Shown here: piece after piece, positions 18,717 through 39,942 of the stretch | Layout of the letters: each line of letters begins with the position of its first letter | How positions within the stretch are numbered: position 1 is the stretch's first letter | DNA from: Dehalococcoidia bacterium | GTDB lineage: Bacteria; Chloroflexota; Dehalococcoidia; Bin125 | Length of the DNA stretch: 64,000 bases | Assembly (NCBI GenBank): GCA_965211635.1 | Contig: OZ242948.1 | Span: 2,054,938-2,118,937 of the forward strand | Reading direction: 5' to 3' | Notes under the pieces: model-generated | Databases searched by the model: none | Told to the model about the DNA's origin: nothing | The model's input: the letters and a program-made list of their open reading frames with translations, nothing else | Made by a program: the position numbers and the translations under genes

Positions 18717-19697
18717 TCAAATCCCAAACTCGGCCGCTTCATCGTCGACCGCGCCGCCGCTGTCGGCGAACAGCGAGGCCAGCGACTCCAACTGTTCCTC
18801 GTCATACCAGTGGATCACGATGCGCCCGCCGGCGGCCGGACCTTTGGCGCCGGCGCGAACTTCAACCTTGGTGCCGAGCGCGGACTCGAGCCGTTTCGCG
18901 GCCCTGAGCATCGATGGCGACGCTACTGGCTCCGTCGACCTTGAGTTCGGCCTGGTCAACGCGCGCACCGCGTCCTCCAGGACACGAACCGTCCAGCCAC
19001 CGGTGATGGCTCGGTTCGCCAGGCCATGCCGCTCGTCCTCGGGCGCCCCGAGCAGCGCTCGTGCGTGTCCTTCGCTCAACGCGCCGGAAGACACCATGGC
19101 CTGAATCGCCTCCGGCAGTCGTCGCAACCGCAAGGCGTTGGCGACCGCTGCACGACTCTTGCCCACCTGCCCGGCAATCCGCTCCTGGGTCCAGCCCGAT
19201 TCAACGAGCTGCTCGAACGCCGCCGCCGTCTCGATCGGATTCAGATCGCTGCGCTGCAGGTTCTCGACCAGGGCTAATGTCAAGCCATCGGAGTCATGCT
19301 GCGAATCTGCCTGGACGACGACCGGAACCTCCGACAGCCCGGCCAGGCCAGCAGCTCGCCAGCGACGTTCGCCGGCGATCAGCTCGTAGCCGCCCGAGCC
19401 CTGCGCCCGCACCAACAACGGCTGCAGGATTCCGTGCTCGCGAATACTGGCGGCCAACTCCTCCAGCCCCTCACGCTCGAACTCCTGGCGTGGTTGCGAC
19501 GGATTCCTGGTGATCGATCCGATCGGCGCATGCAGCCGGCCGTCCGTTGCCTCCTGCTCCGCAGAGGACGGGATCAGGGAGTCCAGGCCTCGACCGAGTC
19601 GCCGCTTGCGCTTTTCCTCTTCGGTTAGCGGTTGGGGCGGCCGCGAACCGAAGGTTGTGATCTTCGGCTCCGACGTTGCGATCTCCGATTGAGTCAT
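18717..19697 (-). CDS. parB: Chromosome partitioning protein ParB/Spo0J
   Basis: 326 aa, LGRGLDSLIP, ...ITRNPSQPRQEF...LAASIREHGILQPLLVR...YELIAGERRWRAAGLAGL (ParB box, HTH). Confidence 0.9.
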   Translation of the reverse strand: MTQSEIATSEPKITTFGSRPPQPLTEEEKRKRRLGRGLDSLIPSSAEQEATDGRLHAPIGSITRNPSQPRQEFEREGLEELAASIREHGILQPLLVRAQGSGGYELIAGERRWRAAGLAGLSEVPVVVQADSQHDSDGLTLALVENLQRSDLNPIETAAAFEQLVESGWTQERIAGQVGKSRAAVANALRLRRLPEAIQAMVSSGALSEGHARALLGAPEDERHGLANRAITGGWTVRVLEDAVRALTRPNSRSTEPVASPSMLRAAKRLESALGTKVEVRAGAKGPAAGGRIVIHWYDEEQLESLASLFADSGGAVDDEAAEFGI

Positions 19698-20500
19698 GCC
19701 TGTACTCCATCCACGACGCCGCCTCGGTAGATCGTCGATGGCGGTAGCGCTGCAAGGCGGCGTAACAACTCTCCCGCCAGCTCCCGATACGCCTCCGCCC
19801 CTCGCGAAGTCGGAGCGTAGTCGATGATCGGTCGCTGATGGCTCGGCGCCTCCGACAGGCGGATCGAGCGCGGGATAATCGTATCAAATGTCGAACTGAT
19901 ATGCGATTTAAGTTGGGCCGCGACATCCTGCGACAGCCGCGTGCGACCGTCGTACATCGTCGCCACCACACCCAGGAGCTGCAGCCCCGGATGCAGGTGC
20001 AACTGCACTCGACGAATCGTTTCCCGCAGCGCAGTCAAGCCCTCCAGCGCTAGGTACTCGCACTGCACCGGCGCGATCGCGGCGTCCGCGGCGGCCAGCG
20101 CGTTCAATGTCATCAGACCGAGCGACGGGCCGCAGTCGATCAGGACCAGCTCGTACTGCGGCGCCACGTCTGCCAGCATCGCGCGCAGCACGAACTCCCG
20201 GTTCGGCCTGGATGCGAGCTCGAGCTCGGCCGCGACCAGGTCTATCGATGATGGCGCGATGTCGAGGTTGGGCCAGGCTGTAGGCACGACGCACTGCATG
20301 AGGGGCGCCTCGCCAAGCAGTGCGTCGAACATGCTGAGCGATGCGTGATTGGACCCAAGCGCCGACGTTGCGTTGGCCTGCGCGTCGGCATCAACCACAA
20401 GCGTGCGATGACCCATCTCCGCAGCGGCGGCAGCCAGATTGACGGTTGTCGTCGTCTTGCCGACGCCGCCCTTCTGGTTCGCGATCGCAACCACACTCAC
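19694..20500 (-). CDS. parA: Chromosome partitioning ATPase ParA/Soj
   Basis: 268 aa, MSVVAIANQKGGVGKTTTTVNLAAAAAEMGHRTLVVDADAQ (deviant Walker A KGGxGKT). ATGA overlap with parB. Confidence 0.9.
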   Translation of the reverse strand: MSVVAIANQKGGVGKTTTTVNLAAAAAEMGHRTLVVDADAQANATSALGSNHASLSMFDALLGEAPLMQCVVPTAWPNLDIAPSSIDLVAAELELASRPNREFVLRAMLADVAPQYELVLIDCGPSLGLMTLNALAAADAAIAPVQCEYLALEGLTALRETIRRVQLHLHPGLQLLGVVATMYDGRTRLSQDVAAQLKSHISSTFDTIIPRSIRLSEAPSHQRPIIDYAPTSRGAEAYRELAGELLRRLAALPPSTIYRGGVVDGVQA

Positions 20501-20566: not shown

Positions 20567-21613
20567 CTATTCGTCACGGTACAGAATCCGCACCCGACGT
20601 GACGAGCCCTCGCCGAACGACTCGGTGCGCACATCCGGATCGTCCTGCAGTTGCAGGTGGATGATCCGCCGCTCCGCCGCCGGCATCACACCGAGGGTCA
20701 CCGGTTCGCCGCCATCTCGCACTTCAGACGCCGCACGTTGAGCCATTTCTTCCAGGGCCGTCTCGCGGCGGCGGCGGTAGCCATCGACATCGACGGTCAT
20801 CGGATTGTTGCCGTCCAGCGCTCGGCTCACGATCACGTTGACGACGTACTGCAGGGCTGACACGTGGGCTCCGTGCCGCCCAATCAGCAGGCCCAGGTCC
20901 TCTTCACCTACCGGGTTGACGTCGAGCACCGCCACCGCGTGACCGAGACCGTCCATCGGCGTTGCAGGATCACGGGCCGTGACGTCAACGTCGAATCCAA
21001 GCTGATGCGCAATGTCGGTCAGCACCTCGACCGCGAACTCGCGAGGGTTCTCATTCGGCTCGTAGTCAGGGTCCGCCAGCAGATCGAAGGGGCCAATCGG
21101 TTCGCGAGCAGGCTGACGATCGCGGGCCTCGTTGCGCGTCCCGGCACGACTGCGTCCCGGGCTTCTGGATCGCGTTCGTTCGCGCCTGCCCGAACTCGCC
21201 GGCTCTACCTGGCGAGGACGCGAGCGCGAGCGATGATCTGGCTGTACCTCCCGCTGTGTCTCGCCCGTGTCCGCGGCTTGCCGCGGCGCTCGCGACGCCA
21301 CAGGCCGTTGAGTCGTGGTTCGCCGAGCGGCAGGTCGCGGACGTTGGCCGGGCTCAACCTCGGTCAGGTCGGAGTAGTCGTCGATCTTGGGCAATGCCGA
21401 TGCATCATCGGGCGGGGCAGACGCGCTTGCCCCGGCGCGGGGCGTGACGCGCACCAGCGACTGCGCGTGACCAATTCCAAAAATGCCGGTCCGACCCTCC
21501 TCCAGCACCTCTACGTCGACCTGCGCGCGAGTCATCCTCAGACGCCGCAACGCAGCCTGGACCGCATCATCCACAGTTCGTCCCGATTGTTCGATTGGAT
21601 TGCGATTCGCCAT
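20567..21613 (-). CDS. Jag/KhpB RNA-binding protein (Jag_N, KH, R3H) with long low-complexity linker
   Basis: 348 aa. N-terminus GRTVDDAVQAALRRLRMTRAQVDVEVLEEGRTGIFG (Jag_N). C-terminus MPAAERRIIHLQLQDDPDVRTESFGEGSSRRVRILYRDE (R3H). Downstream of yidC as usual. Confidence 0.8.
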   Translation of the reverse strand: MANRNPIEQSGRTVDDAVQAALRRLRMTRAQVDVEVLEEGRTGIFGIGHAQSLVRVTPRAGASASAPPDDASALPKIDDYSDLTEVEPGQRPRPAARRTTTQRPVASRAPRQAADTGETQREVQPDHRSRSRPRQVEPASSGRRERTRSRSPGRSRAGTRNEARDRQPAREPIGPFDLLADPDYEPNENPREFAVEVLTDIAHQLGFDVDVTARDPATPMDGLGHAVAVLDVNPVGEEDLGLLIGRHGAHVSALQYVVNVIVSRALDGNNPMTVDVDGYRRRRETALEEMAQRAASEVRDGGEPVTLGVMPAAERRIIHLQLQDDPDVRTESFGEGSSRRVRILYRDE

Positions 21614-21697: not shown

Positions 21698-22633
21698 TTA
21701 GCGCGATCTGCTCGCGCGCCGTCTTCGTTGCCGTCTTCGTCTTGCTGCGCTCGTCGTCTTTCGAGCCGGGCGCTGCGGTTCCGGTTCGTCTGCTTCGACG
21801 ATCTCTGCCGATTGCTCGGCGATAGCCGTCGTGCCGTTGGCTGCAACCCCTGCAGCCGGAGCAGGAAGGGGCTCCGAGGAGAGCAGCCACTTCCATGACC
21901 AGCGCAGACCCTGGCGGTAGAAGTAGTAGTACCAGGAGGTGATGATTGTGAATACCGAGGTGACCAGCCAGTAGAGACCGAGCCCCGCCGGCACTTGCAA
22001 GGTGAAGAACCCGAACATGAACGGCATCATCCACAGCATGGTGCGATTCATGGACTCCGAGCGCTCGTCGCGCGGTCCCATCCGAGCGGTCGACACCTTC
22101 TGCTGAATGTACGCCGTCACGCCAACCATGATGGCGAGCGGCAGCGACTGCTCGAGCGAGGACGATCCCAGGTCCCAGAAGAGGAAGTCGCGATTGATAG
22201 GGATCGCCGACGTGATGTAGGACCAGTCGTACAGGTCGCTGGACAAGCGCAGCAACTGTTCGGGAGTGTCACCCAGCGTCCGTCGCAGCACCTGGTAGAG
22301 CGCGATCCAGATCGGCATCTGAACCAACAGCGGCCAGAGGCAACCGAGCGGATTGAAGCCTGCCTCGCGGTAGACCTTCATCAACTCTTCCTGGCGCCGT
22401 CGAGGGTCCTTGTACTTCTTCTGAATCTCCTGCATCCGCGGCTGCATCTCCTGCATCGAACGCGTTGCACGGAGCTGTCGCAGCGTGAGCGGATACGTAA
22501 TCACACGCACAATCAGGGTGAACAGGATGATTGCGACGCCGTAATTGTCATCGACGGCGTGGGCGATCACGATCAGCCCATTCATGATTGGGCCGATCAG
22601 AATGTCATTCCAGATAAAGTCGAGAATGTCCAT
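21698..22633 (-). CDS. yidC: Membrane protein insertase YidC (short, Gram-positive type)
   Basis: 311 aa, ...YPLTLRQLRATRSMQEMQPRMQEIQKKYKDPRRRQEELMKVYREAGFNPLGCLWPLLVQMPIWIALY..., characteristic YidC/Oxa1 TM2-3 region. Confidence 0.9.
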   Translation of the reverse strand: MDILDFIWNDILIGPIMNGLIVIAHAVDDNYGVAIILFTLIVRVITYPLTLRQLRATRSMQEMQPRMQEIQKKYKDPRRRQEELMKVYREAGFNPLGCLWPLLVQMPIWIALYQVLRRTLGDTPEQLLRLSSDLYDWSYITSAIPINRDFLFWDLGSSSLEQSLPLAIMVGVTAYIQQKVSTARMGPRDERSESMNRTMLWMMPFMFGFFTLQVPAGLGLYWLVTSVFTIITSWYYYFYRQGLRWSWKWLLSSEPLPAPAAGVAANGTTAIAEQSAEIVEADEPEPQRPARKTTSAARRRRQRRRRASRSR

Positions 22634-22663
22634 CGTGGTCCGTCTTAGCTCGTTTTCGGCATG

Positions 22664-23827
22664 CTAGTTCGGCGGGTAGAGTCTGACCGCCTGGTTGGCG
22701 CCCAACAGCACTGCGTACAGCACGCCGTCTTCGTCGCTGACCAGGATGCGGTCGTCCTTGAGGACTGCATTGGCCATCAAGTCCTTGGCCTTTTCCAGTT
22801 GGAACTGGCGCAATAGCGAACCGTCGCTTGCGTTGAGTTGATGGATCATCCCGCCTCGCGCGACGATCACGAGGATGCCGCCGCTGCTGTCAGGGTCGTC
22901 AAACTCAACGAACAGTGGACGCGCGCGAATTCGGTCGTCTGCCGCGTATGGCTGCAGCCAGCGGGGCTGGCCGCTGAGAGCGTCGAGGGCATAGACGTTG
23001 CCGCGAAGATCGGTCATGTAGATGACATCGCCGTGAATCAGAGGCGTGCCCCAGATCCAGTGCGAGGCCTGTGCGGTCCAGATCTGGGCGCCGGTTGCCG
23101 CATCGATTCCGTAGAAGATCCGGTCCAGTCCACCCACGTAGACGATGCCGTCGGCGGAGACTATCGAGCCGGCGATCCCCGCGTCAATTTCTATCTGCCA
23201 CGCCGGCGTTCCCGCTTCAGCGCCGGAGATGTGCAAGGCCGTCACCCTGCCATCCAGTCCGGCGACGATGAGTAACTTACCTCGATCTGTCTCGACCAGA
23301 ACCGGGCCGCTCCAGATTTGCAGGTCGGAGTCGCCGCTCCAGGTCCAGACAGACGAACCGGGTTGCTCGATATCTACAGCATGGACTCGATAGGCCGTAT
23401 CTGCCAGATAGACGCGTGTGCCTTCCACGACGAGGTCAGCGACGATTCGCGCCTCGGTGGCAAAGAGCTCACGTGCTGACTCCCCGTCTCCGCGTACTGC
23501 GTAGAGCACGCCGTCGGAGTAGCCGGAGAGCAGCCACTCCTCCGTCTCAGGCACCCAGACCGGATCGGCGTAAAAGGCGACCGGGTCGATCTCGAAGTCA
23601 AGCCCCGGGAATCTGCCGTCGTCGTCGGGAAACTCCCACGCGGCGGCGCCGAGATTGCCATCCAACAACTGCACCGCGACCACGGTGTTGTCTCCGGTTG
23701 GAGCGAGCAAGCGCGTGTCCGGTTCGAGCGGATCGGGAGTTGGCGCGGCCCAGCCGTCGGGCTGGTCGGCCACGTCACAGGCGGCGATCACGGGCAGCGT
23801 CAACAGCACAATCGCTGCGGCGACCAT
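22664..23827 (-). CDS. PQQ-like beta-propeller repeat lipoprotein (BamB-like fold)
   Basis: ORF track 22664..24004. Probable start at MVAAAIVLLTLPVIAACD (lipobox VIAAC). Repeated WxxxxDG / GxxYxxDxxxG blades (VYALDALSGQPRWLQ, LYAVLLG). Unusually inserted between yidD and yidC. Confidence 0.7.
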   Translation of the reverse strand: MVAAAIVLLTLPVIAACDVADQPDGWAAPTPDPLEPDTRLLAPTGDNTVVAVQLLDGNLGAAAWEFPDDDGRFPGLDFEIDPVAFYADPVWVPETEEWLLSGYSDGVLYAVRGDGESARELFATEARIVADLVVEGTRVYLADTAYRVHAVDIEQPGSSVWTWSGDSDLQIWSGPVLVETDRGKLLIVAGLDGRVTALHISGAEAGTPAWQIEIDAGIAGSIVSADGIVYVGGLDRIFYGIDAATGAQIWTAQASHWIWGTPLIHGDVIYMTDLRGNVYALDALSGQPRWLQPYAADDRIRARPLFVEFDDPDSSGGILVIVARGGMIHQLNASDGSLLRQFQLEKAKDLMANAVLKDDRILVSDEDGVLYAVLLGANQAVRLYPPN

Positions 23828-23863
23828 GCGAGAACGGATCGCAGGCGGGCTGGGCGCCGTTCG

Positions 23864-23879
23864 ATGTTTCACGTGAAAC
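23864..23879. promoter_or_regulatory. Perfect 14-16 bp palindrome TGTTTCACGTGAAACA (copy 1), candidate operator
   Basis: Read directly. ~40 nt upstream of the probable start of the BamB-like lipoprotein gene. Confidence 0.4.
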
Positions 23880-23990
23880 ACCCCAACGATCTCGCGCCAG
23901 ATCCACCGGAGCTGGCCGGACCGGGAGGATGACCAAGACAGTCGGCGCCGTGGCCCAGCAGCGGCGCCGGCGACTTGAGCCGGAAGAGTT

Positions 23991-24350
23991 TCAGATTGTT
24001 TCACGTGAAACGTCCTGCTCGCCTGTCGTCGTCATCTCGTTGTGCCGATTGCGGGCGCGCGTTGGCACCGGGTCGAATCCACCAGCATTCATCGGATTGC
24101 AGCGCAACAGGCGCCAGGCGCCAAGTCCGATGCCTACGACCGCGCCGCGCTGACAGACCGCATCGAGCATGTACTGGGAACAGGACGGCTCGAAGCGGCA
24201 GCGTGAACCCATCGCCGCAAAGAGCGGAGAAAGCACTATCTGGTAGCCGCGCAACGCCGTCAGTACGCCCCGATCGACGATCCGCGACAGCGGTGTCAGC
24301 AAACGAGTCAATGGCGCACGCACGTTCACCGGCGCCCTCGTCGGAATCAA
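23991..24350 (-). CDS. yidD: Membrane protein insertion efficiency factor YidD
   Basis: RGYQIVLSPLFAAMGSRCRFEPSCSQYMLDAVCQRGAVVGIGLGAWRLLRCNPMNAGGFDPVP, the canonical YidD Cys motif. Follows rnpA. Confidence 0.8.
   Translation of the reverse strand: MIPTRAPVNVRAPLTRLLTPLSRIVDRGVLTALRGYQIVLSPLFAAMGSRCRFEPSCSQYMLDAVCQRGAVVGIGLGAWRLLRCNPMNAGGFDPVPTRARNRHNEMTTTGEQDVSRETI
23997..24012. promoter_or_regulatory. Perfect palindrome GTTTCACGTGAAAC (copy 2), 133 bp from copy 1
   Basis: Read directly. Lies at the 3' end of yidD. Confidence 0.4.
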
Positions 24351-24787
24351 CTCCCACCTCTCGAACCATGCGTCGAACCATGCGTCGAACCATCCGTCGA
24401 ACCATGCGCTTCGGCGTCGCGCATCAATCCTCGCACCAACCTGGCCAGAGTTGCGTCGAGGGTGCGGAAGTCAGCTTCCGCCGAACCATCTCTCGCCACC
24501 ACAACCACATCCAATCCTGCGCACTTCCCTTCCTGGTTGAGCCGACGCGCTGATTCACGCAAACGCCTTCTGATGCGATTCCTGACCACCGCTCCTCCCA
24601 GCCGGGAACTGATGGCAAAGCCGAACCGGCATGGGCCATCGAGCGAGTCTTCAGCGCGTTGAAGGGCCCTCAACGCCAGCACTCCGCTGGATCGGCGTCG
24701 ACCGTCCTGGAACACTGCGTCAAACTCCGACTTTCGTCGCAGACGCTGATCGGCACGCTTCATGGTCCGCACGGCCTGATCGTTCAC
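24347..24787 (-). CDS. rnpA: Ribonuclease P protein component
   Basis: 146 aa, basic, RRKSEFDAVFQDGRRRSSGVLALRALQ... Positioned between rpmH and yidD. Start may be at MKRADQRLRRK. Confidence 0.8.
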   Translation of the reverse strand: MNDQAVRTMKRADQRLRRKSEFDAVFQDGRRRSSGVLALRALQRAEDSLDGPCRFGFAISSRLGGAVVRNRIRRRLRESARRLNQEGKCAGLDVVVVARDGSAEADFRTLDATLARLVRGLMRDAEAHGSTDGSTHGSTHGSRGGS

Positions 24788-24847
24788 GAGAATCGCTTAC
24801 CCGTTGGATGAGCGGGTTTCATGGACACCGGAACAGACTTGTGACGC

Positions 24848-24988
24848 TCAGACGACGGTCAGCCGACGACGGCCACGTGCGCGGCGGCGTTTGAGTACGG
24901 CGCGGCCGCCGCGGCTCGACATTCGCTTCAGGAATCCATGTTCCCGCTTGCGCGGAATCCGTTTTGGTTGATACGTGCGTTTCGGCAT
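24848..24988 (-). CDS. rpmH: 50S ribosomal protein L34
   Basis: Own minus-strand translation: [46 protein letters not shown] (46 aa). Not in the ORF track (<60 aa). Canonical L34, upstream of rnpA. Confidence 0.85.
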
Positions 24989-25128
24989 CGTCTCCCTCAA
25001 CACATCACAGGACACGCCGGCCCGGTCGTCGAAGAGCGGTAGGACAAGTACCGCTCAGTATAAGCCAGTCACGTCGGTTTCCACGTTGCCTGAGTTGCGT
25101 TCCTGCACAGTTGCCGCATGCCTGCTGC

Positions 25129-27597
25129 TCATTGGGCTGCCCGTTCTGTCGCCCGTTCAACCGCCTGGTACGCCGCCCAGGTCTCCAGAACATATCGCAC
25201 ATATGACCTGGTAGATCGGAAATCCATGGCCGCGAGGAATGCGTCGGGACCAGGCAGCAGCGCCTGGTCTTCCCAGCGGGCGGCATTCCCCGGTCCCGCG
25301 TTGTACGCGGCCAGGGCGATTAGCGGCTCGTTCGAGAACCCCTCCATTTGTCGAGCCAGGTACCAGGAACCGAATCGGATCGCCAGCTCCGGACGCGCCA
25401 GATCGGTGTGCTGGTAGGCAATCCCCAAACCTGCGGCAATGTCAGATCCCGTTAGCGGAATCACTTGCGTCAAGCCCACCTCGCCTGCCAATCCAGCGGC
25501 GTCGGCGTCATAGAGACTTTCTCGTCGGATCAGCGACCAAAGCAGCAGCGGATCCAGTCCCTCCGACCCAGCGTGCAGCGCCATCACATCCGGCCATGGC
25601 TTGGGGTAGGCCAATCGCAGCAAGTCAACCGGCGCCTCGGTCCAGGTCAGGCCGAAGAGGTCCAGCACACGCTCCGCGGCTCGAGCCGAGGCCGACGTCT
25701 CATTGTGCGCAGCGAGGAGTTGCGAGGCTTCAACTAGCTCCCAAGGATCGTCAGCCAGTCGGTCAATCCACTGCAAGAGCATCCGGTCCGCGGCATCATC
25801 CCAACCGCCAAGACGCAACTCTTGCGCGGCAAGCCACTCCGGCGCAGTCTGTAGATCGATCACGGAAGGATCTGCCTCGCCGGTCAAGCGAACGAGCCAA
25901 TCGTCGAGCGAGATATCGAGCGCGTCGGGCGATTCCAGTCCCAGTAGCGATGCCGCCCGCAGTCCGAAGTAGCCGCCTGGATCGCTCTCTACTACTTGTG
26001 ACCCCAAGTCGCTGGCCGACTCTACGTCGCCGGCCTCCCGGTACATCAATGCCGACCAGTAGAGAAACTCCAGCCTGACCCGCTCGCCCCAATAGTCTGC
26101 TCCGGTGTTGGCGATGTCACGAAACCGCTGCGCCGCCTCCAACCACTGACCCCTGGCAACTGCTCGCAGCGCCCAGCGCCGCGCCGCTTCCTCCGCTCGG
26201 GCGTGCTGCGGATGCTCAGTCCATACTCGGCGCCAGTATTCCCCAGCTACCGACAGGTCGCCATCGGCGGCGGCGAAGTCGGCCAGCCGCATCATCGACT
26301 CAGCTGCCAACGCGTCGCTGGAGTCGCGACCGATCACCGCGACATAACCAAGGGCGGCACTCTCCAGGTCCCCGTTCGCTTGATGGATCGCTGCGATGTA
26401 GAACTCTCCTGCGACCTGGTCCGCCACCACACTCGAACCGCCCAAGACGTTCAACATTGCTGCGCGCGCTTCAACCCAGCGCTGCTCCTCAAAGCGAATC
26501 AAACCGACAGTGAGTTCATCCACCAGGACTCCGGCATCGAGCAAGAACGCTAGCGCTTCGCTGCTCTCGGGATACTCCCGATATCCCTCAACCAGCGTGA
26601 GCCAGACCTCGTGGGCCGCCTTGGAGTCGCCGAGTTCAGATTGCAGTCTCCCCACCCGACTGAGCGCGGCCGCCTGATCGTCGCGCCAGGGAGACAGGTC
26701 GATCAGCTCGCCATAACGATCCAGTGCGGACTCCGCGTCGCCGCCGATGTCGAGCTCGGTCGCCAACAGGTGGATCGCTCGAAGCCGATCCTGAAACGAC
26801 AGCAATCCACCGAGCGACCGCCCAACCCATTCGATCGACTCGGCGCTTCGGCCGGCGCGTTGCAGCACGCGTCCGGTCTCGAGAGCGACAATGGCCCAGG
26901 CGGGACTATCGGAGTTGACGTAGCTGCGCATCGCTTCGACTGCGGCGTCTACCTGATTGCGCATCAGCGCGGCCTGAGCCGCCAGTAGCAATCTGCGACG
27001 CTGCTTGTCTGCAGATAGCGACTCTCCAAGTTCCATGAGAGCGATCTGAGCGTGCTCAGGCCGGTTCAGCTTGAGCAACAGCCGCGCATGGTCAAGCTGC
27101 AGTTCGGTCAAATCATCTACCGGCAGCGAGGAGCCCGAGAGCATGGCAGATTCGCGTAGGTTCAGCGCCTGCTCCCAGTAGCCGTTGCGCTCAAGCGCGT
27201 CAGCTTCTGCAATCTGCAACCGCACGGGATCGACCGCGCTACGTTCTGTCGTGACCGAGTCCTGTCCATCCTGCGCATCTGACGCGGGCGGAGCGACGGC
27301 CTCCGGCCTTGTTGGGACGGCAGTCCGCGTCTGCTGCTCGGCCGCCTCATCGGCATCTTCCCCACCGCATGCGACCAGCAGGGCGGAGGCGCAGCAAGCA
27401 ATGAGCAACGATATCGTCAGCCGAAGGTGAAGCGCGCGGGCAAGCTCAGCCACGACGGGTAGTATCACATCGATCCCGCGATTTCCCCTGCCATCGCCCA
27501 GATTCACTGTAGCGCCATGACTCGACTCTCGGTGACCAATGTTCCGGCGCCATCCGCCACGAACTGGGTCGAAACCGATCTCAAGGCTGTTCGACAT
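25129..27597 (-). CDS. TPR-repeat lipoprotein with C-terminal lytic transglycosylase (Slt/GEWL) domain
   Basis: 822 aa. Lipobox LLVACGG near the N-terminus (true start probably downstream of 27597, since the ORF overlaps divergent alr). C-terminal catalytic region RRESLYDADAAGLAGEVGLTQVIPLTGSD...ALAAYNAGPGNAARW (SLT domain). Confidence 0.8.
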   Translation of the reverse strand: MSNSLEIGFDPVRGGWRRNIGHRESSHGATVNLGDGRGNRGIDVILPVVAELARALHLRLTISLLIACCASALLVACGGEDADEAAEQQTRTAVPTRPEAVAPPASDAQDGQDSVTTERSAVDPVRLQIAEADALERNGYWEQALNLRESAMLSGSSLPVDDLTELQLDHARLLLKLNRPEHAQIALMELGESLSADKQRRRLLLAAQAALMRNQVDAAVEAMRSYVNSDSPAWAIVALETGRVLQRAGRSAESIEWVGRSLGGLLSFQDRLRAIHLLATELDIGGDAESALDRYGELIDLSPWRDDQAAALSRVGRLQSELGDSKAAHEVWLTLVEGYREYPESSEALAFLLDAGVLVDELTVGLIRFEEQRWVEARAAMLNVLGGSSVVADQVAGEFYIAAIHQANGDLESAALGYVAVIGRDSSDALAAESMMRLADFAAADGDLSVAGEYWRRVWTEHPQHARAEEAARRWALRAVARGQWLEAAQRFRDIANTGADYWGERVRLEFLYWSALMYREAGDVESASDLGSQVVESDPGGYFGLRAASLLGLESPDALDISLDDWLVRLTGEADPSVIDLQTAPEWLAAQELRLGGWDDAADRMLLQWIDRLADDPWELVEASQLLAAHNETSASARAAERVLDLFGLTWTEAPVDLLRLAYPKPWPDVMALHAGSEGLDPLLLWSLIRRESLYDADAAGLAGEVGLTQVIPLTGSDIAAGLGIAYQHTDLARPELAIRFGSWYLARQMEGFSNEPLIALAAYNAGPGNAARWEDQALLPGPDAFLAAMDFRSTRSYVRYVLETWAAYQAVERATERAAQ

Positions 27598-37032: not shown

Positions 37033-38451
37033 ATGGCTACCCTTGGCGACATCCAGAACCTGATCCAGGATCAGGGCATCCGTCGCGTTGATCTGTTGGT
37101 GACCGACCTGATCGGCCGCTGGCAGCACTTCAGCATTCCCGCGTCGAAGGTAGACGAGGACCTGGTCAACCGCGGACAGGGCTTCGACGGTTCCTCGCTG
37201 CGCGGCTTCCAGAGCATCGACGAATCGGACATGCTGCTGCGGCCGGACCTTGACTCGGCGCGGCTGGACCCGACCGAGACCGTGCCGACGCTGAAGTTCA
37301 TCTGCGACGTCCATGATCCGGTGACCGGCGACCGTTACAGCCGCGACCCGCGCTACGTGGCGACCAAGGCCGAGCAGCACATGATCGACTCGGGGATTGC
37401 CGATCAGGCCTTTTTCGGTCCGGAGCTTGAGTTCTTCCTGTTCGACCACGTCCAGTTCCAGATGTCGATCAACCAGGCCTTCTACGTCGTCGAGTCGGAC
37501 GAGGCAGACTGGAACAGCGGACGCGACGAGGACGAAAACAACCTCGGCTACAAGATCCCACCCAAGCAGGGCTACTCGCCGACCGCGCCGTTCGACACGC
37601 TGAGTGACATCCGCTGGGAGATGGCCGACGCGATGGAAGCGGTGGGGATGGAGTTGGAGGTGCACCACCACGAAGTCGCGACCGGCGGCCAGGGTGAGAT
37701 CGCGACGCGATTCAACACGCTGCGCAACAAGGCGGACGAGACCCAGTGGTACAAGCACATCGTGCGCAACGTGGCCAAGGCGAACGGCAAGTCGGCCACC
37801 TTCATGCCCAAGCCGCTCTACGGCGACAACGGCACCGGCATGCACTGCCACCAGTCGCTGTGGAAGGACGGCTCGCCGCTCTTCTACGAGTCCGGCCGGT
37901 ACGCCGATCTCTCCGACACCGCCCGACACTACATCGGCGGCCTGCTCAAGCACGGCTCGGCGCTGCTCGCATTCTGCGCGCCGACGACCAACTCCTACAA
38001 GCGCCTGGTGCCCGGCTTCGAGGCGCCGATCTACCTGGCCTTCTCACAGCGCAACCGCTCGGCGGCGGTCCGTATCCCGACCTACGAGACCTCGCCGAAC
38101 AGCAAGCGGATCGAGTTCCGCCCGCCCGACGCCTCGGCCAACACGTACTTGGCGTTCTCGGCGATGCTGATGGCCGGACTGGACGGGATCCGCAAGCGGA
38201 TCGAGCCGGACGACCCCGTCGACACCGACATCTACGAGTTGAGTCCTGAGGAAGCCGCCGGCATCCCTTCGGTCCCGCACTCGCTCGAAGGCTCGCTCCA
38301 GGCCCTCGCCGAAGACCACGACTTCCTGATGGAAGGCGGCGTCTTCACCCAGGATCTGATCGACGAGTACCAGGACTTCAAGCTGACGGAGGCGCGGGAC
38401 GTCTTCATGCACCCGGTCGCGGCGGAGTTCTTCCACTACTACCACATCTAG
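37033..38451 (+). CDS. glnA: Glutamine synthetase, type I
   Basis: 472 aa, MATLGDIQNLIQDQGIRRVDLLVTDLIGRWQHFS...; GS beta-grasp plus catalytic domain (FGPELEFFLFD, MPKPLYGDNGTGMHCHQSLW). Confidence 0.95.
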   Translation: MATLGDIQNLIQDQGIRRVDLLVTDLIGRWQHFSIPASKVDEDLVNRGQGFDGSSLRGFQSIDESDMLLRPDLDSARLDPTETVPTLKFICDVHDPVTGDRYSRDPRYVATKAEQHMIDSGIADQAFFGPELEFFLFDHVQFQMSINQAFYVVESDEADWNSGRDEDENNLGYKIPPKQGYSPTAPFDTLSDIRWEMADAMEAVGMELEVHHHEVATGGQGEIATRFNTLRNKADETQWYKHIVRNVAKANGKSATFMPKPLYGDNGTGMHCHQSLWKDGSPLFYESGRYADLSDTARHYIGGLLKHGSALLAFCAPTTNSYKRLVPGFEAPIYLAFSQRNRSAAVRIPTYETSPNSKRIEFRPPDASANTYLAFSAMLMAGLDGIRKRIEPDDPVDTDIYELSPEEAAGIPSVPHSLEGSLQALAEDHDFLMEGGVFTQDLIDEYQDFKLTEARDVFMHPVAAEFFHYYHI

Positions 38452-38504
38452 GACGGGCTCTCGCAGTCTCGCCTGTCTCGGAAGGGCGACCGATCTTCTC
38501 AGGT

Positions 38505-38572
38505 TTTGTAGGGGCAGCCCTTGTGGCTGCCCTCCCAGTCGGGCGGGCGACCACAAGGGTCGCCCCTACAGC
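38505..38572. repeat. MITE-like inverted-repeat element, family B, between the two glutamine synthetase genes
   Basis: TGTAGGGGCAGCCCTTGTGGCTGCCC ...18 nt... GGGCGACCACAAGGGTCGCCCCTACAG. The terminal CTGTAG/CTACAG are inverted. Confidence 0.7.
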
Positions 38573-38592
38573 CGAGGGACCGGGAAACAACA

Positions 38593-39942
38593 ATGACCAG
38601 CCTTGATGCAGACCTTAACGCTCCACCGAACGAGCATCAGCACGTCCTGAACGCCTGCCGCGAACATGACGTTCGCTTCGTGCGGCTCTGGTTCACCGAC
38701 CTGCTGGGTCAACTGAAATCCGTGGCGATCACGATTGACGAGCTGCCGGCCGCGCTCGAAAAGGGCGTCGAGTTCGACGGCGCGTCGATCGAGGGATTCG
38801 CCCGACACGACGAGTCGGACATGGTGGCGCTTCCTGATCCGGACACGTTCGTGGTCCTGCCCTGGCGACCTGAGCAGCACCGCGTTGCACGGATGATCTG
38901 CGACATCCACCGGCGCAACGGCGAGCCGTTTGAGGGCGACCCACGCCGCGTGCTGCGCCGCCAGCTCGAGTCGGCGCAACAGCGCGGTTACACCTTCTAT
39001 GTCGCTCCGCAGATCGAGTACTTCTACTTCCGCGCGCCGGACGATCCGTCACCGCTGGACTCGGGCGGATACTTCGATCTCTCCCCGCTCGACACGGCGA
39101 CGGATCTGCGTCGGGAGACTGTGCTAACGCTGGAGGAGATGGGTATCGGGGTTGAGTCTTCGCATCACGAAGCGGCGCCCTCTCAGCACGAGATCGACCT
39201 TCGCTACACCGACGCGTTGACCATGGCCGACCAGGTGATGACCACGCGCCTGGTGGTCAAGGAGGTCGCCATCAAGCAAGGGGTACACGCGACGTTCATG
39301 CCCAAGCCGCTCAACGGCGTCAATGGCTCCGGGATGCACGTGTACCTCTCGCTCTGGGACCATGAGCAGAATCTGTTCTACGAGGAAGGCGGCGGTCTCT
39401 CTGAGACTGCGCGTTCCTTCCTTGCCGGTCTGCTTGCCTACACGCCGCAGTTCACGTTGATCACCAACCAGTGGTCGAACAGTTACAAGCGCCTCGCGCC
39501 GGGGACCGAGGCGCCTGTGTACCTGACCTGGTCACACGCGAATCAGTCGGACCTGGTCCGCATTCCCGAGTACGAGCCGGGCGACGCGGAGTCGAGCCGG
39601 CTGGAGTATCGCGGCGCCGACTCGGCGACGAATCCGTACCTCGCGTTTTCGGTCTTCCTGGCGGCCGGTCTGCGCGGCATTGACGAGGGCTTGGCCCCGC
39701 CGCCGGCGGCCGAGGACAACGTCTTCGAACTGACTTCGACCCAGCGGGCGGCTCGCAGCATTCTCGAGATGCCAACCACCCAAGGTCGGGCGATCGAAGC
39801 CTTTGCGGCATCGGAGTTGATGAAGACGATTCTGGGAGAGTACGTCTGGACGACGGTGTTGGAGAACAAGCGGCTGGAGTGGAACGAGTACCGCTCACAG
39901 GTCACTGACTACGAGCTGCGTCGATACCTGGCCGTGCTGTAA
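38593..39942 (+). CDS. Glutamine synthetase, type I (second, shorter paralogue)
   Basis: Start MTSLDADLNAPPNEHQHVLNACREHDVRFVRLWFTDLLGQLKSV...; MPKPLNGVNGSGMHVYLSLW. The 24 upstream codons in the ORF track (38521..) are a family-B repeat, not coding. Confidence 0.9.
   Translation: MTSLDADLNAPPNEHQHVLNACREHDVRFVRLWFTDLLGQLKSVAITIDELPAALEKGVEFDGASIEGFARHDESDMVALPDPDTFVVLPWRPEQHRVARMICDIHRRNGEPFEGDPRRVLRRQLESAQQRGYTFYVAPQIEYFYFRAPDDPSPLDSGGYFDLSPLDTATDLRRETVLTLEEMGIGVESSHHEAAPSQHEIDLRYTDALTMADQVMTTRLVVKEVAIKQGVHATFMPKPLNGVNGSGMHVYLSLWDHEQNLFYEEGGGLSETARSFLAGLLAYTPQFTLITNQWSNSYKRLAPGTEAPVYLTWSHANQSDLVRIPEYEPGDAESSRLEYRGADSATNPYLAFSVFLAAGLRGIDEGLAPPPAAEDNVFELTSTQRAARSILEMPTTQGRAIEAFAASELMKTILGEYVWTTVLENKRLEWNEYRSQVTDYELRRYLAVL

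Follow-up and report, generated by a model that had tools for sequence, protein, structure and literature searches.

Two palindromes between yidD and a lipoprotein gene in a Dehalococcoidia chromosome as predicted parS sites of a ParABS system

In a 64-kb stretch of DNA from an uncultured Dehalococcoidia lineage (the window, by which we mean the whole stretch that was analysed), the same short palindrome occurs twice between yidD and the gene for a PQQ/BamB-like lipoprotein. What kind of protein do such sites serve, and in which process? An earlier note on this DNA had proposed the operators of a dimeric transcription factor, acting in pairs through DNA looping on the lipoprotein gene. From the sequences of the two copies, the proteins encoded around them and 80 related loci, we conclude, with a probability of about 0.93, that the palindromes are chromosomal parS sites, that is, centromere-like loading sites of a ParABS segregation system.

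The two palindromes and the parS consensus

The two copies and the gene that runs into one of them are as follows.

23865–23880, no strand assigned: candidate parS site 1 (copy 1, lipoprotein-proximal), a perfect 16-bp palindrome TGTTTCACGTGAAACA and an exact match
23997–24012, no strand assigned: candidate parS site 2 (copy 2, yidD-proximal), TGTTTCACGTGAAACG on the plus strand and CGTTTCACGTGAAACA on the gene strand
23991–24350, minus strand: yidD, with the Pfam YidD domain at residues 29–95 of 119 and a tail that crosses site 2

The 14-mer GTTTCACGTGAAAC has two exact matches in the 64-kb window, at 23866–23879 and 23998–24011, which confirms the duplication reported before. Dinucleotide-preserving shuffles lead one to expect 0.08–0.10 matches, and two matches were seen in 0 of 100 shuffles. 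Read as a 16-mer, site 2 has a single mismatch, at the outermost base; the description of the copies as perfect palindromes thus holds for the 14-mer in both and for the 16-mer in copy 1, but not for the 16-mer in copy 2. Their spacing is 132 bp from start to start rather than the stated 133 bp. With 37.5% GC in a window of ~64% GC, the 16-mer is AT-richer than the genome around it, and copy 2 does lie over the last codons of yidD (...DVSRETI*), both as had been observed.

No third copy of the palindrome was found within the window at up to three mismatches. The similarity between the two copies is limited to the 15–16-bp element and their flanks are unrelated, which rules out a local duplication carrying flanking sequence, an origin that the earlier note itself had raised. 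Local duplication and a repeat family were both rejected on these two grounds.

Compared with the parS consensus TGTTNCACGTGAAACA, site 1 has no mismatches and site 2 has one. A table of parS sequences in a review gives TGTTNCACGTGAAACA for B. subtilis and C. glutamicum, GTTTCACGTGAAAC for M. smegmatis and TGTTTCACGTGAAACA for H. neptunium (PMC7022226), and in M. tuberculosis the perfect palindrome TGTTTCACGTGAAACA is found at two sites, 1–2 kb upstream of parB (Casart et al., PMC2346475). Site 1 has exactly the parS sequence published for M. tuberculosis and H. neptunium, and the papers that full-text searches listed for this string all deal with ParB, parS, Noc, the replication origin or chromosome organisation. 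The CACGTG core, which had been thought unusual for bacterial operators, is that of a palindrome which is a hallmark of chromosomal parS. What survives of the operator proposal is that the sites are predicted to serve a dimeric helix-turn-helix DNA-binding protein; the looping operator pair does not.

The same 16-bp sequence or consensus is shared by the chromosomal parS of B. subtilis (Spo0J sites), mycobacteria, H. neptunium, C. crescentus and C. glutamicum. As in mycobacteria, the sites are few and close to parAB, in an origin-region cluster of rpmH, rnpA, yidC, jag and parAB, and, like the mycobacterial sites in or near gidB and parA (PMC2346475), they may also fall within genes. The locus differs from known parS systems in its host, an uncultured lineage of Dehalococcoidia (Chloroflexota), in having no rsmG/gidB between jag and parA, and in sites that appear to be built into the junction of the yidD stop and the lipoprotein start, with a conserved AGGA and frame-preserving spacing. 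We found no description of parS in Dehalococcoidia, or at a yidD junction, in the literature searched, an absence which is no proof of novelty; parS is one of the best-known bacterial cis elements, and the present case is a new instance of it in an uncultured Dehalococcoidia lineage.

ParA, ParB and the origin-region gene cluster

The genes surrounding the sites, other than yidD and the lipoprotein gene, were identified as follows, the first four from the open reading frame listing and profile matches.

24848–24988, minus strand: rpmH
24347–24787, minus strand: rnpA
21698–22633, minus strand: yidC
20567–21613, minus strand: jag/khpB
19694–20500, minus strand: parA, partition ATPase, with Pfam AAA_31/CbiA/ParA-type matches and a deviant Walker A motif, KGGVGKT, at residues 10–16
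18717–19697, minus strand: parB, the predicted cognate parS-binding CTP-dependent clamp of 326 aa, with Pfam ParB_N, HTH_ParB and ParB_C

All lie on the minus strand, closely packed, in the order rpmH-rnpA-yidD-lipoprotein-yidC-jag-parA-parB. ParA and a complete ParB are thus encoded 3.4–4.3 kb downstream of the sites in the same co-directional gene string, and the two genes overlap by 4 nt. ParB scores above the cut-off of the NCBIfam model TIGR00180 (parB_part), and its best matches in the PDB are the Spo0J/ParB entries 1vz0, 7bnk and 6t1f (T. thermophilus Spo0J, M. xanthus ParB and C. crescentus ParB). Its motifs are LGRGL at residues 34–38, GERRWRA (the CTP box) at 109–115, GKSR at 179–182 and GHAR at 210–213. 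A gap-free alignment to Caulobacter ParB over the recognition helices shows that Q162, G170, K171, S172, R173, N178, G201 and R204 are kept, and all of the parS-contact residues listed by Jalal et al. (10.1101/724823) are conserved. The specificity positions R182, A188, R193 and G210 (own numbering) read R/A/R/G and place the protein in the RXXG class. In its CTP box and its parS-type specificity residues the protein resembles the ParB of chromosomal ParABS systems, and the intact Walker A motif of ParA together with the retained LGRGL sequence, the ParA-stimulating peptide of ParB, points to an active partition system.

The steps by which such a system works are established for the ParABS family (PMC7022226), and we infer them for this organism. 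A ParB dimer, encoded 4.2–4.3 kb downstream, would recognise each 16-bp site through its helix-turn-helix. Binding of parS, with CTP at the GERRWRA box, would cause the N-terminal domains of ParB to close into a clamp, which would then leave parS and slide onto the flanking DNA. Because the clamps slide off parS, a few sites could nucleate a large ParB–DNA partition complex over the region from rpmH to parB. The LGRGL peptide would stimulate nucleoid-bound ParA-ATP, so that duplicated origin regions are moved apart, and the partition complex would probably also load the SMC condensin. Two sites instead of one would, on this mechanism, provide redundancy and not a looping geometry.

The sites fall in a classical origin-region gene cluster and the window is chromosomal in content, with rpmH, rnpA, yidC, the nuo operon, secA and groEL. 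GC skew changes from negative to positive, the polarity of an origin, over a broad region at ~30–41 kb, 6–17 kb from the sites. Neither dnaA nor dnaN was present among the large open reading frames scanned in the 64-kb window, and the window contains no cluster of DnaA boxes (four one-mismatch matches, where 3.3 are expected), so origin proximity is read only from the skew and the gene content; by these the position of the sites near the origin is supported, not proven. The gene that follows rpmH in this lineage encodes an SLT transglycosylase rather than DnaA. Two adjacent glutamine-synthetase (GlnA type I) paralogues are found near the sign change of the skew, at 37033–39942 on the plus strand. 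At the 3′ end of rnpA (24350–24405), just upstream of the rnpA/yidD overlap, is a tandem 12-nt repeat, cgtcgaaccatg on the plus strand in ~3 copies, which gives the C-terminal tail of RnpA the sequence ...GSTDGSTHGSTHGS....

Related loci and the competing explanations

A YidC-centred scan with one genome per species gave 80 loci, in which YidC identity ranges from 99% to 35%; most are titled as Dehalococcoidia or Chloroflexota MAGs and two carry other labels. Counting only loci long enough to judge, with parS defined by at most two mismatches and parA-parB located after jag, parS was found in 41 of the 42 loci that have parAB and in none of the 22 that lack it (Fisher p = 3e-16, a value that is overstated, as the co-occurrence mostly follows one phylogenetic split and so reflects shared ancestry). 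These 22 loci have the lipoprotein gene but neither parAB nor the palindrome; it is parAB that the palindrome tracks, and not the lipoprotein, contrary to what had been suggested when the comparison was first proposed. Nor is the lipoprotein gene oddly inserted into the operon, as had been thought, since each of the 78 loci that cover that DNA has a homologue, down to 24% identity, at this place between yidD and yidC.

The 1.12 Mb of related DNA contains 75 sites, of which 73 are located between the 3′ end of yidD and the 5′ end of the lipoprotein gene and the other two in rnpA. With such a bias in position a dispersed repeat family is excluded, in agreement with the earlier remark that the element is unrelated to the GC-rich repeat families and with the lack of further copies in the 64 kb. 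There is one site in 14 loci, there are two in 29 and three in 1, with a spacing of 39–186 bp; two loci, in which rnpA carries the second site, have 668 bp instead. No helical phasing of the spacing is conserved among the related loci. The position of the sites is conserved in 43 related loci, and an equivalent of site 2 lies at the 3′ end of yidD in 40. Information content is 1.92 bits per position both in the equivalents of site 1 (flanks 0.31–0.33) and in those of site 2 (flanks 0.38–0.40). The 16-mer is conserved at all three codon positions, and coding constraint alone is therefore no explanation for it.

Some loci show features of their own. L023, the one locus with parAB but no parS, has no match at up to three mismatches along all of its 16.9 kb, and the centromere of that genome has presumably been relocated. 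The lipoprotein of L023 (6700–6900) begins MTRFHPLPLIRRRF.... Three parAB-less loci (L073:6821–6836, L075:6035–6050 and L077:6821–6836) each have one palindrome, perfect or nearly so, AGTTTCGA(T/C)CGAAACT, in the gap between yidD and the lipoprotein gene. It combines the arms of parS with a different core and might be the diverged centromere of a ParB whose gene lies elsewhere, or a coincidence. In lipoprotein-proximal second sites, complementarity of the flanks lengthens the palindrome by 2–6 bp; examples are L010, L011, L020, L022, L028 and L031 (cgaaatTG...CAatttcg), L037 and L038 (ggggTG...CAcccc) and the window itself at 23855–23890. The mean paired run in the flanks of second sites is 1.8 with Watson–Crick pairs and 2.6 with G–U pairs included, against 0.1–0.3 at first sites (P ≤ 0.001 relative to re-paired flanks). 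A flank preference of ParB, an RNA hairpin and the mode of origin of these sites are all possibilities.

How do these results bear on the view of the palindromes as operators, through which a dimeric transcription factor would control the lipoprotein gene by looping between phased sites? Two strong dyads do lie close to the 5′ end of that gene, ParB-family proteins can repress (KorB is among the PDB matches), and effects of ParB–parS on neighbouring promoters have been proposed or demonstrated in mycobacteria and S. pneumoniae. The sequence is nevertheless that of the parS consensus, the lipoprotein gene occurs in 22 related loci without palindrome or parAB, and the analysis of phase described below puts the sites inside coding sequence. 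With one to three sites per locus at spacings that vary from 39 to 186 bp, a looping pair is not supported, and the idea of helical phasing, put forward from a distance of ~12.5 turns, was rejected. Since the palindrome follows parAB (41/42 against 0/22) and probably lies within the coding sequence of the lipoprotein, we consider control of lipoprotein expression from an operator pair very unlikely. One might accept the sites as true parS and still suppose that their main selected role is ParB-mediated (auto)regulation of the operon from rpmH to parB, not segregation. The string of co-directional genes in which they lie has parA-parB at its end, the overlap of parS with a promoter in mycobacteria was proposed to regulate gidB/parA (PMC2346475), and transcriptional roles of ParB have been noted in a limited number of species. 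Such roles have, however, been shown for few genes and species (PMC7022226), and here ParA retains its Walker A motif and ParB its LGRGL peptide. A scan of 23500–25300 for sigma-70 promoters and intrinsic terminators, uninformative for Chloroflexota promoters, gave 0 sites and hence no promoter at the palindromes. Regulation as the main role thus seems unlikely to us, while a secondary effect of ParB binding on operon expression is possible.

The remaining explanations fare worse. If the palindrome had been selected as an mRNA hairpin for translation at the junction of the yidD stop and the lipoprotein start, with only a coincidental likeness to parS, one could point to the start codon and Shine–Dalgarno sequence that adjoin or fall within it, to the folding of copy 1 RNA at −12.5 kcal/mol (z = −2.6, a modest value) and to the later sites whose extended flank complementarity includes G–U pairs. 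Yet copy 2 is unremarkable (−6.3 kcal/mol, z = −0.44), and where a hairpin should show compensatory changes the parS sequence is kept with hardly any variation at any of the 16 positions, with an ACGT core in 74 of 77 GTTTC-N4-GAAAC motifs; the element is moreover absent exactly where parAB is absent. A search of 22500–25500 against Rfam at a permissive threshold gave no match. A palindrome unavoidably yields a hairpin, and we hold selection of the hairpin as such to be highly improbable.

We put equally little trust in binding by some other ParB-family paralogue, Noc-like or KorB-like, in place of the partition ParB. The Noc model TIGR04285 gives the lowest E-value of the NCBIfam models for the ParB of the window, and Noc and KorB chains are among its PDB matches, but the Noc score of 197.5 bits is far below the cut-off of 315, whereas parB_part passes. 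The Noc-binding site (NBS) of Firmicutes resembles the element described here in being palindromic, 16 bp long and the target of a ParB-family CTPase, whose DNA-contact residues are mostly those of ParB. In its half-site, positions 1 and 6 are A and C, where the present sites have G and T, as in parS, and the specificity residues of Noc are Q173/K179/K184/R201 in contrast to the parS-type R173/G201 of ParB (10.1101/724823); the protein here has R/A/R/G. A ParB-family protein together with a palindromic site is also found in the operators of KorB (OB) and in plasmid centromeres (P1 parS, F sopC), and KorB (PDB 8qa8) demonstrates that the family can act in transcriptional repression. The KorB match has E = 8e-15, however, compared with 1e-46 to 1e-52 for chromosomal ParB/Spo0J, and the window is chromosomal. 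The OB and plasmid centromere sequences are not known to be related to the sites described here. As for chance palindromes, a dispersed repeat or a local duplication, nothing more than the presence of two copies speaks for them; with the shuffles, the single pair in 64 kb, the unrelated flanks and a position conserved across 43 related loci on the other side, we give them practically no weight.

The sites within the coding sequence of yidD and, probably, of the lipoprotein gene

The reading of the palindromes as parS leaves the question of how they fit between two genes that are so closely packed. Two further features are needed here.

22664–24004, minus strand: long form of the PQQ/BamB-like beta-propeller lipoprotein (open reading frame listing, Pfam PQQ_2), with the central GTG of site 2 as its start
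24013–24016, minus strand: AGGA, a Shine–Dalgarno-like core which adjoins site 2, 8 nt upstream of the central GTG at 24004–24002

The stop codon of yidD (TGA, 23993–23991) lies 3 nt past site 2. YidD of parAB-less relatives ends at the domain boundary (...GGYDPVP*), whereas the proteins of the parS-bearing clade continue in a poorly conserved tail through the first parS (DVSRET) to a stop exactly 3 nt later; the tail of the parS-bearing proteins is therefore lineage-specific. Around the yidD-proximal site the frame is conserved as tcAGGA, then TGTTTCACGTGAAACA, then nnnTGA (L001–L040), and the central GTG (or an ATG formed from A+TG) is in the lipoprotein frame, in which the 16-mer reads (M/L/V)FHVKQ/H. 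A Shine–Dalgarno core is present within −14 to −1 of 26 of the 38 first sites in loci of the close clade, compared with 1 of the 23 later sites.

Between the lipoprotein-proximal parS and the Cys codon of the lipobox there are ~19 distinct distances, from 68 to 209 nt, all in a single phase (p ~ 3e-10), which would place this site within the translated 5′ end of the gene. Of the 19 distinct spacings between paired sites 16 are divisible by 3 (p = 7e-6), and only the frame of the lipoprotein is open in every one of the 25 in-phase inter-site segments; antisense frames are open in 15–19 of them. It had been stated that one palindrome sits ~40 nt upstream of the lipoprotein start. Copy 1 does lie 38 nt before the ATG at 23827, but the comparison of loci indicates that the true start is further upstream. 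Initiation at this ATG would give MVAAAIVLLTLPVIAAC, without a charged n-region, and the longer forms add K/R. The inter-site DNA has no codon signature, its GC content at the three codon positions being flat (0.665/0.633/0.655) in comparison with the gene body (0.697/0.457/0.795), and substitutions between the sites are nearly even over codon positions (72/49/77). Neither measure favours translation of this stretch, in contrast to the statistics of length and phase, and only the length of this DNA appears constrained.

From these data we favour, as rather likely, a start of lipoprotein translation at the first parS, at GTG 24004; the assignment of the palindromes to parS does not depend on it. 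The open reading frame is then probably 22664–24004, with both parS sites in its 5′ coding region, and site 1 most likely encodes an N-terminal region ahead of the hydrophobic core of the signal peptide. The yidD-proximal site has the appearance of a stop/start junction with translational coupling that is built on a centromere, one 16-mer under three constraints: as a DNA-binding site, as the C-terminus of a protein and as a translation start. We regard it as unlikely that the centromere is hard-wired into the translational-coupling junction of a membrane-insertase operon, with a second, in-frame parS translated in the N-terminal region of the lipoprotein. Were the junction functional, ParB clamp loading would take place on the same DNA as the transcription, translation and membrane insertion of the lipoprotein. 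The origin region could then be anchored at the membrane (transertion), or expression of yidD-lipoprotein-yidC-jag-parAB could be sensitive to ParB occupancy.

The finding itself is real but ordinary, and the overlap of stop, start and parS with its frame-preserving spacing is a minor curiosity. For annotation, the element would be identified as the centromere of the chromosome and the window marked as probably close to the origin, the false lead of a lipoprotein regulon is removed, and it is suggested that the lipoprotein start be moved upstream, to GTG 24004. Throughout the class Dehalococcoidia the gene between yidD and yidC encodes the PQQ-propeller lipoprotein, a conserved but uncharacterised member of the membrane-insertase operon. 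Dehalococcoidia lineages that have parS and parAB at this locus, set beside those that have neither there, offer a clean natural comparison for chromosome segregation.
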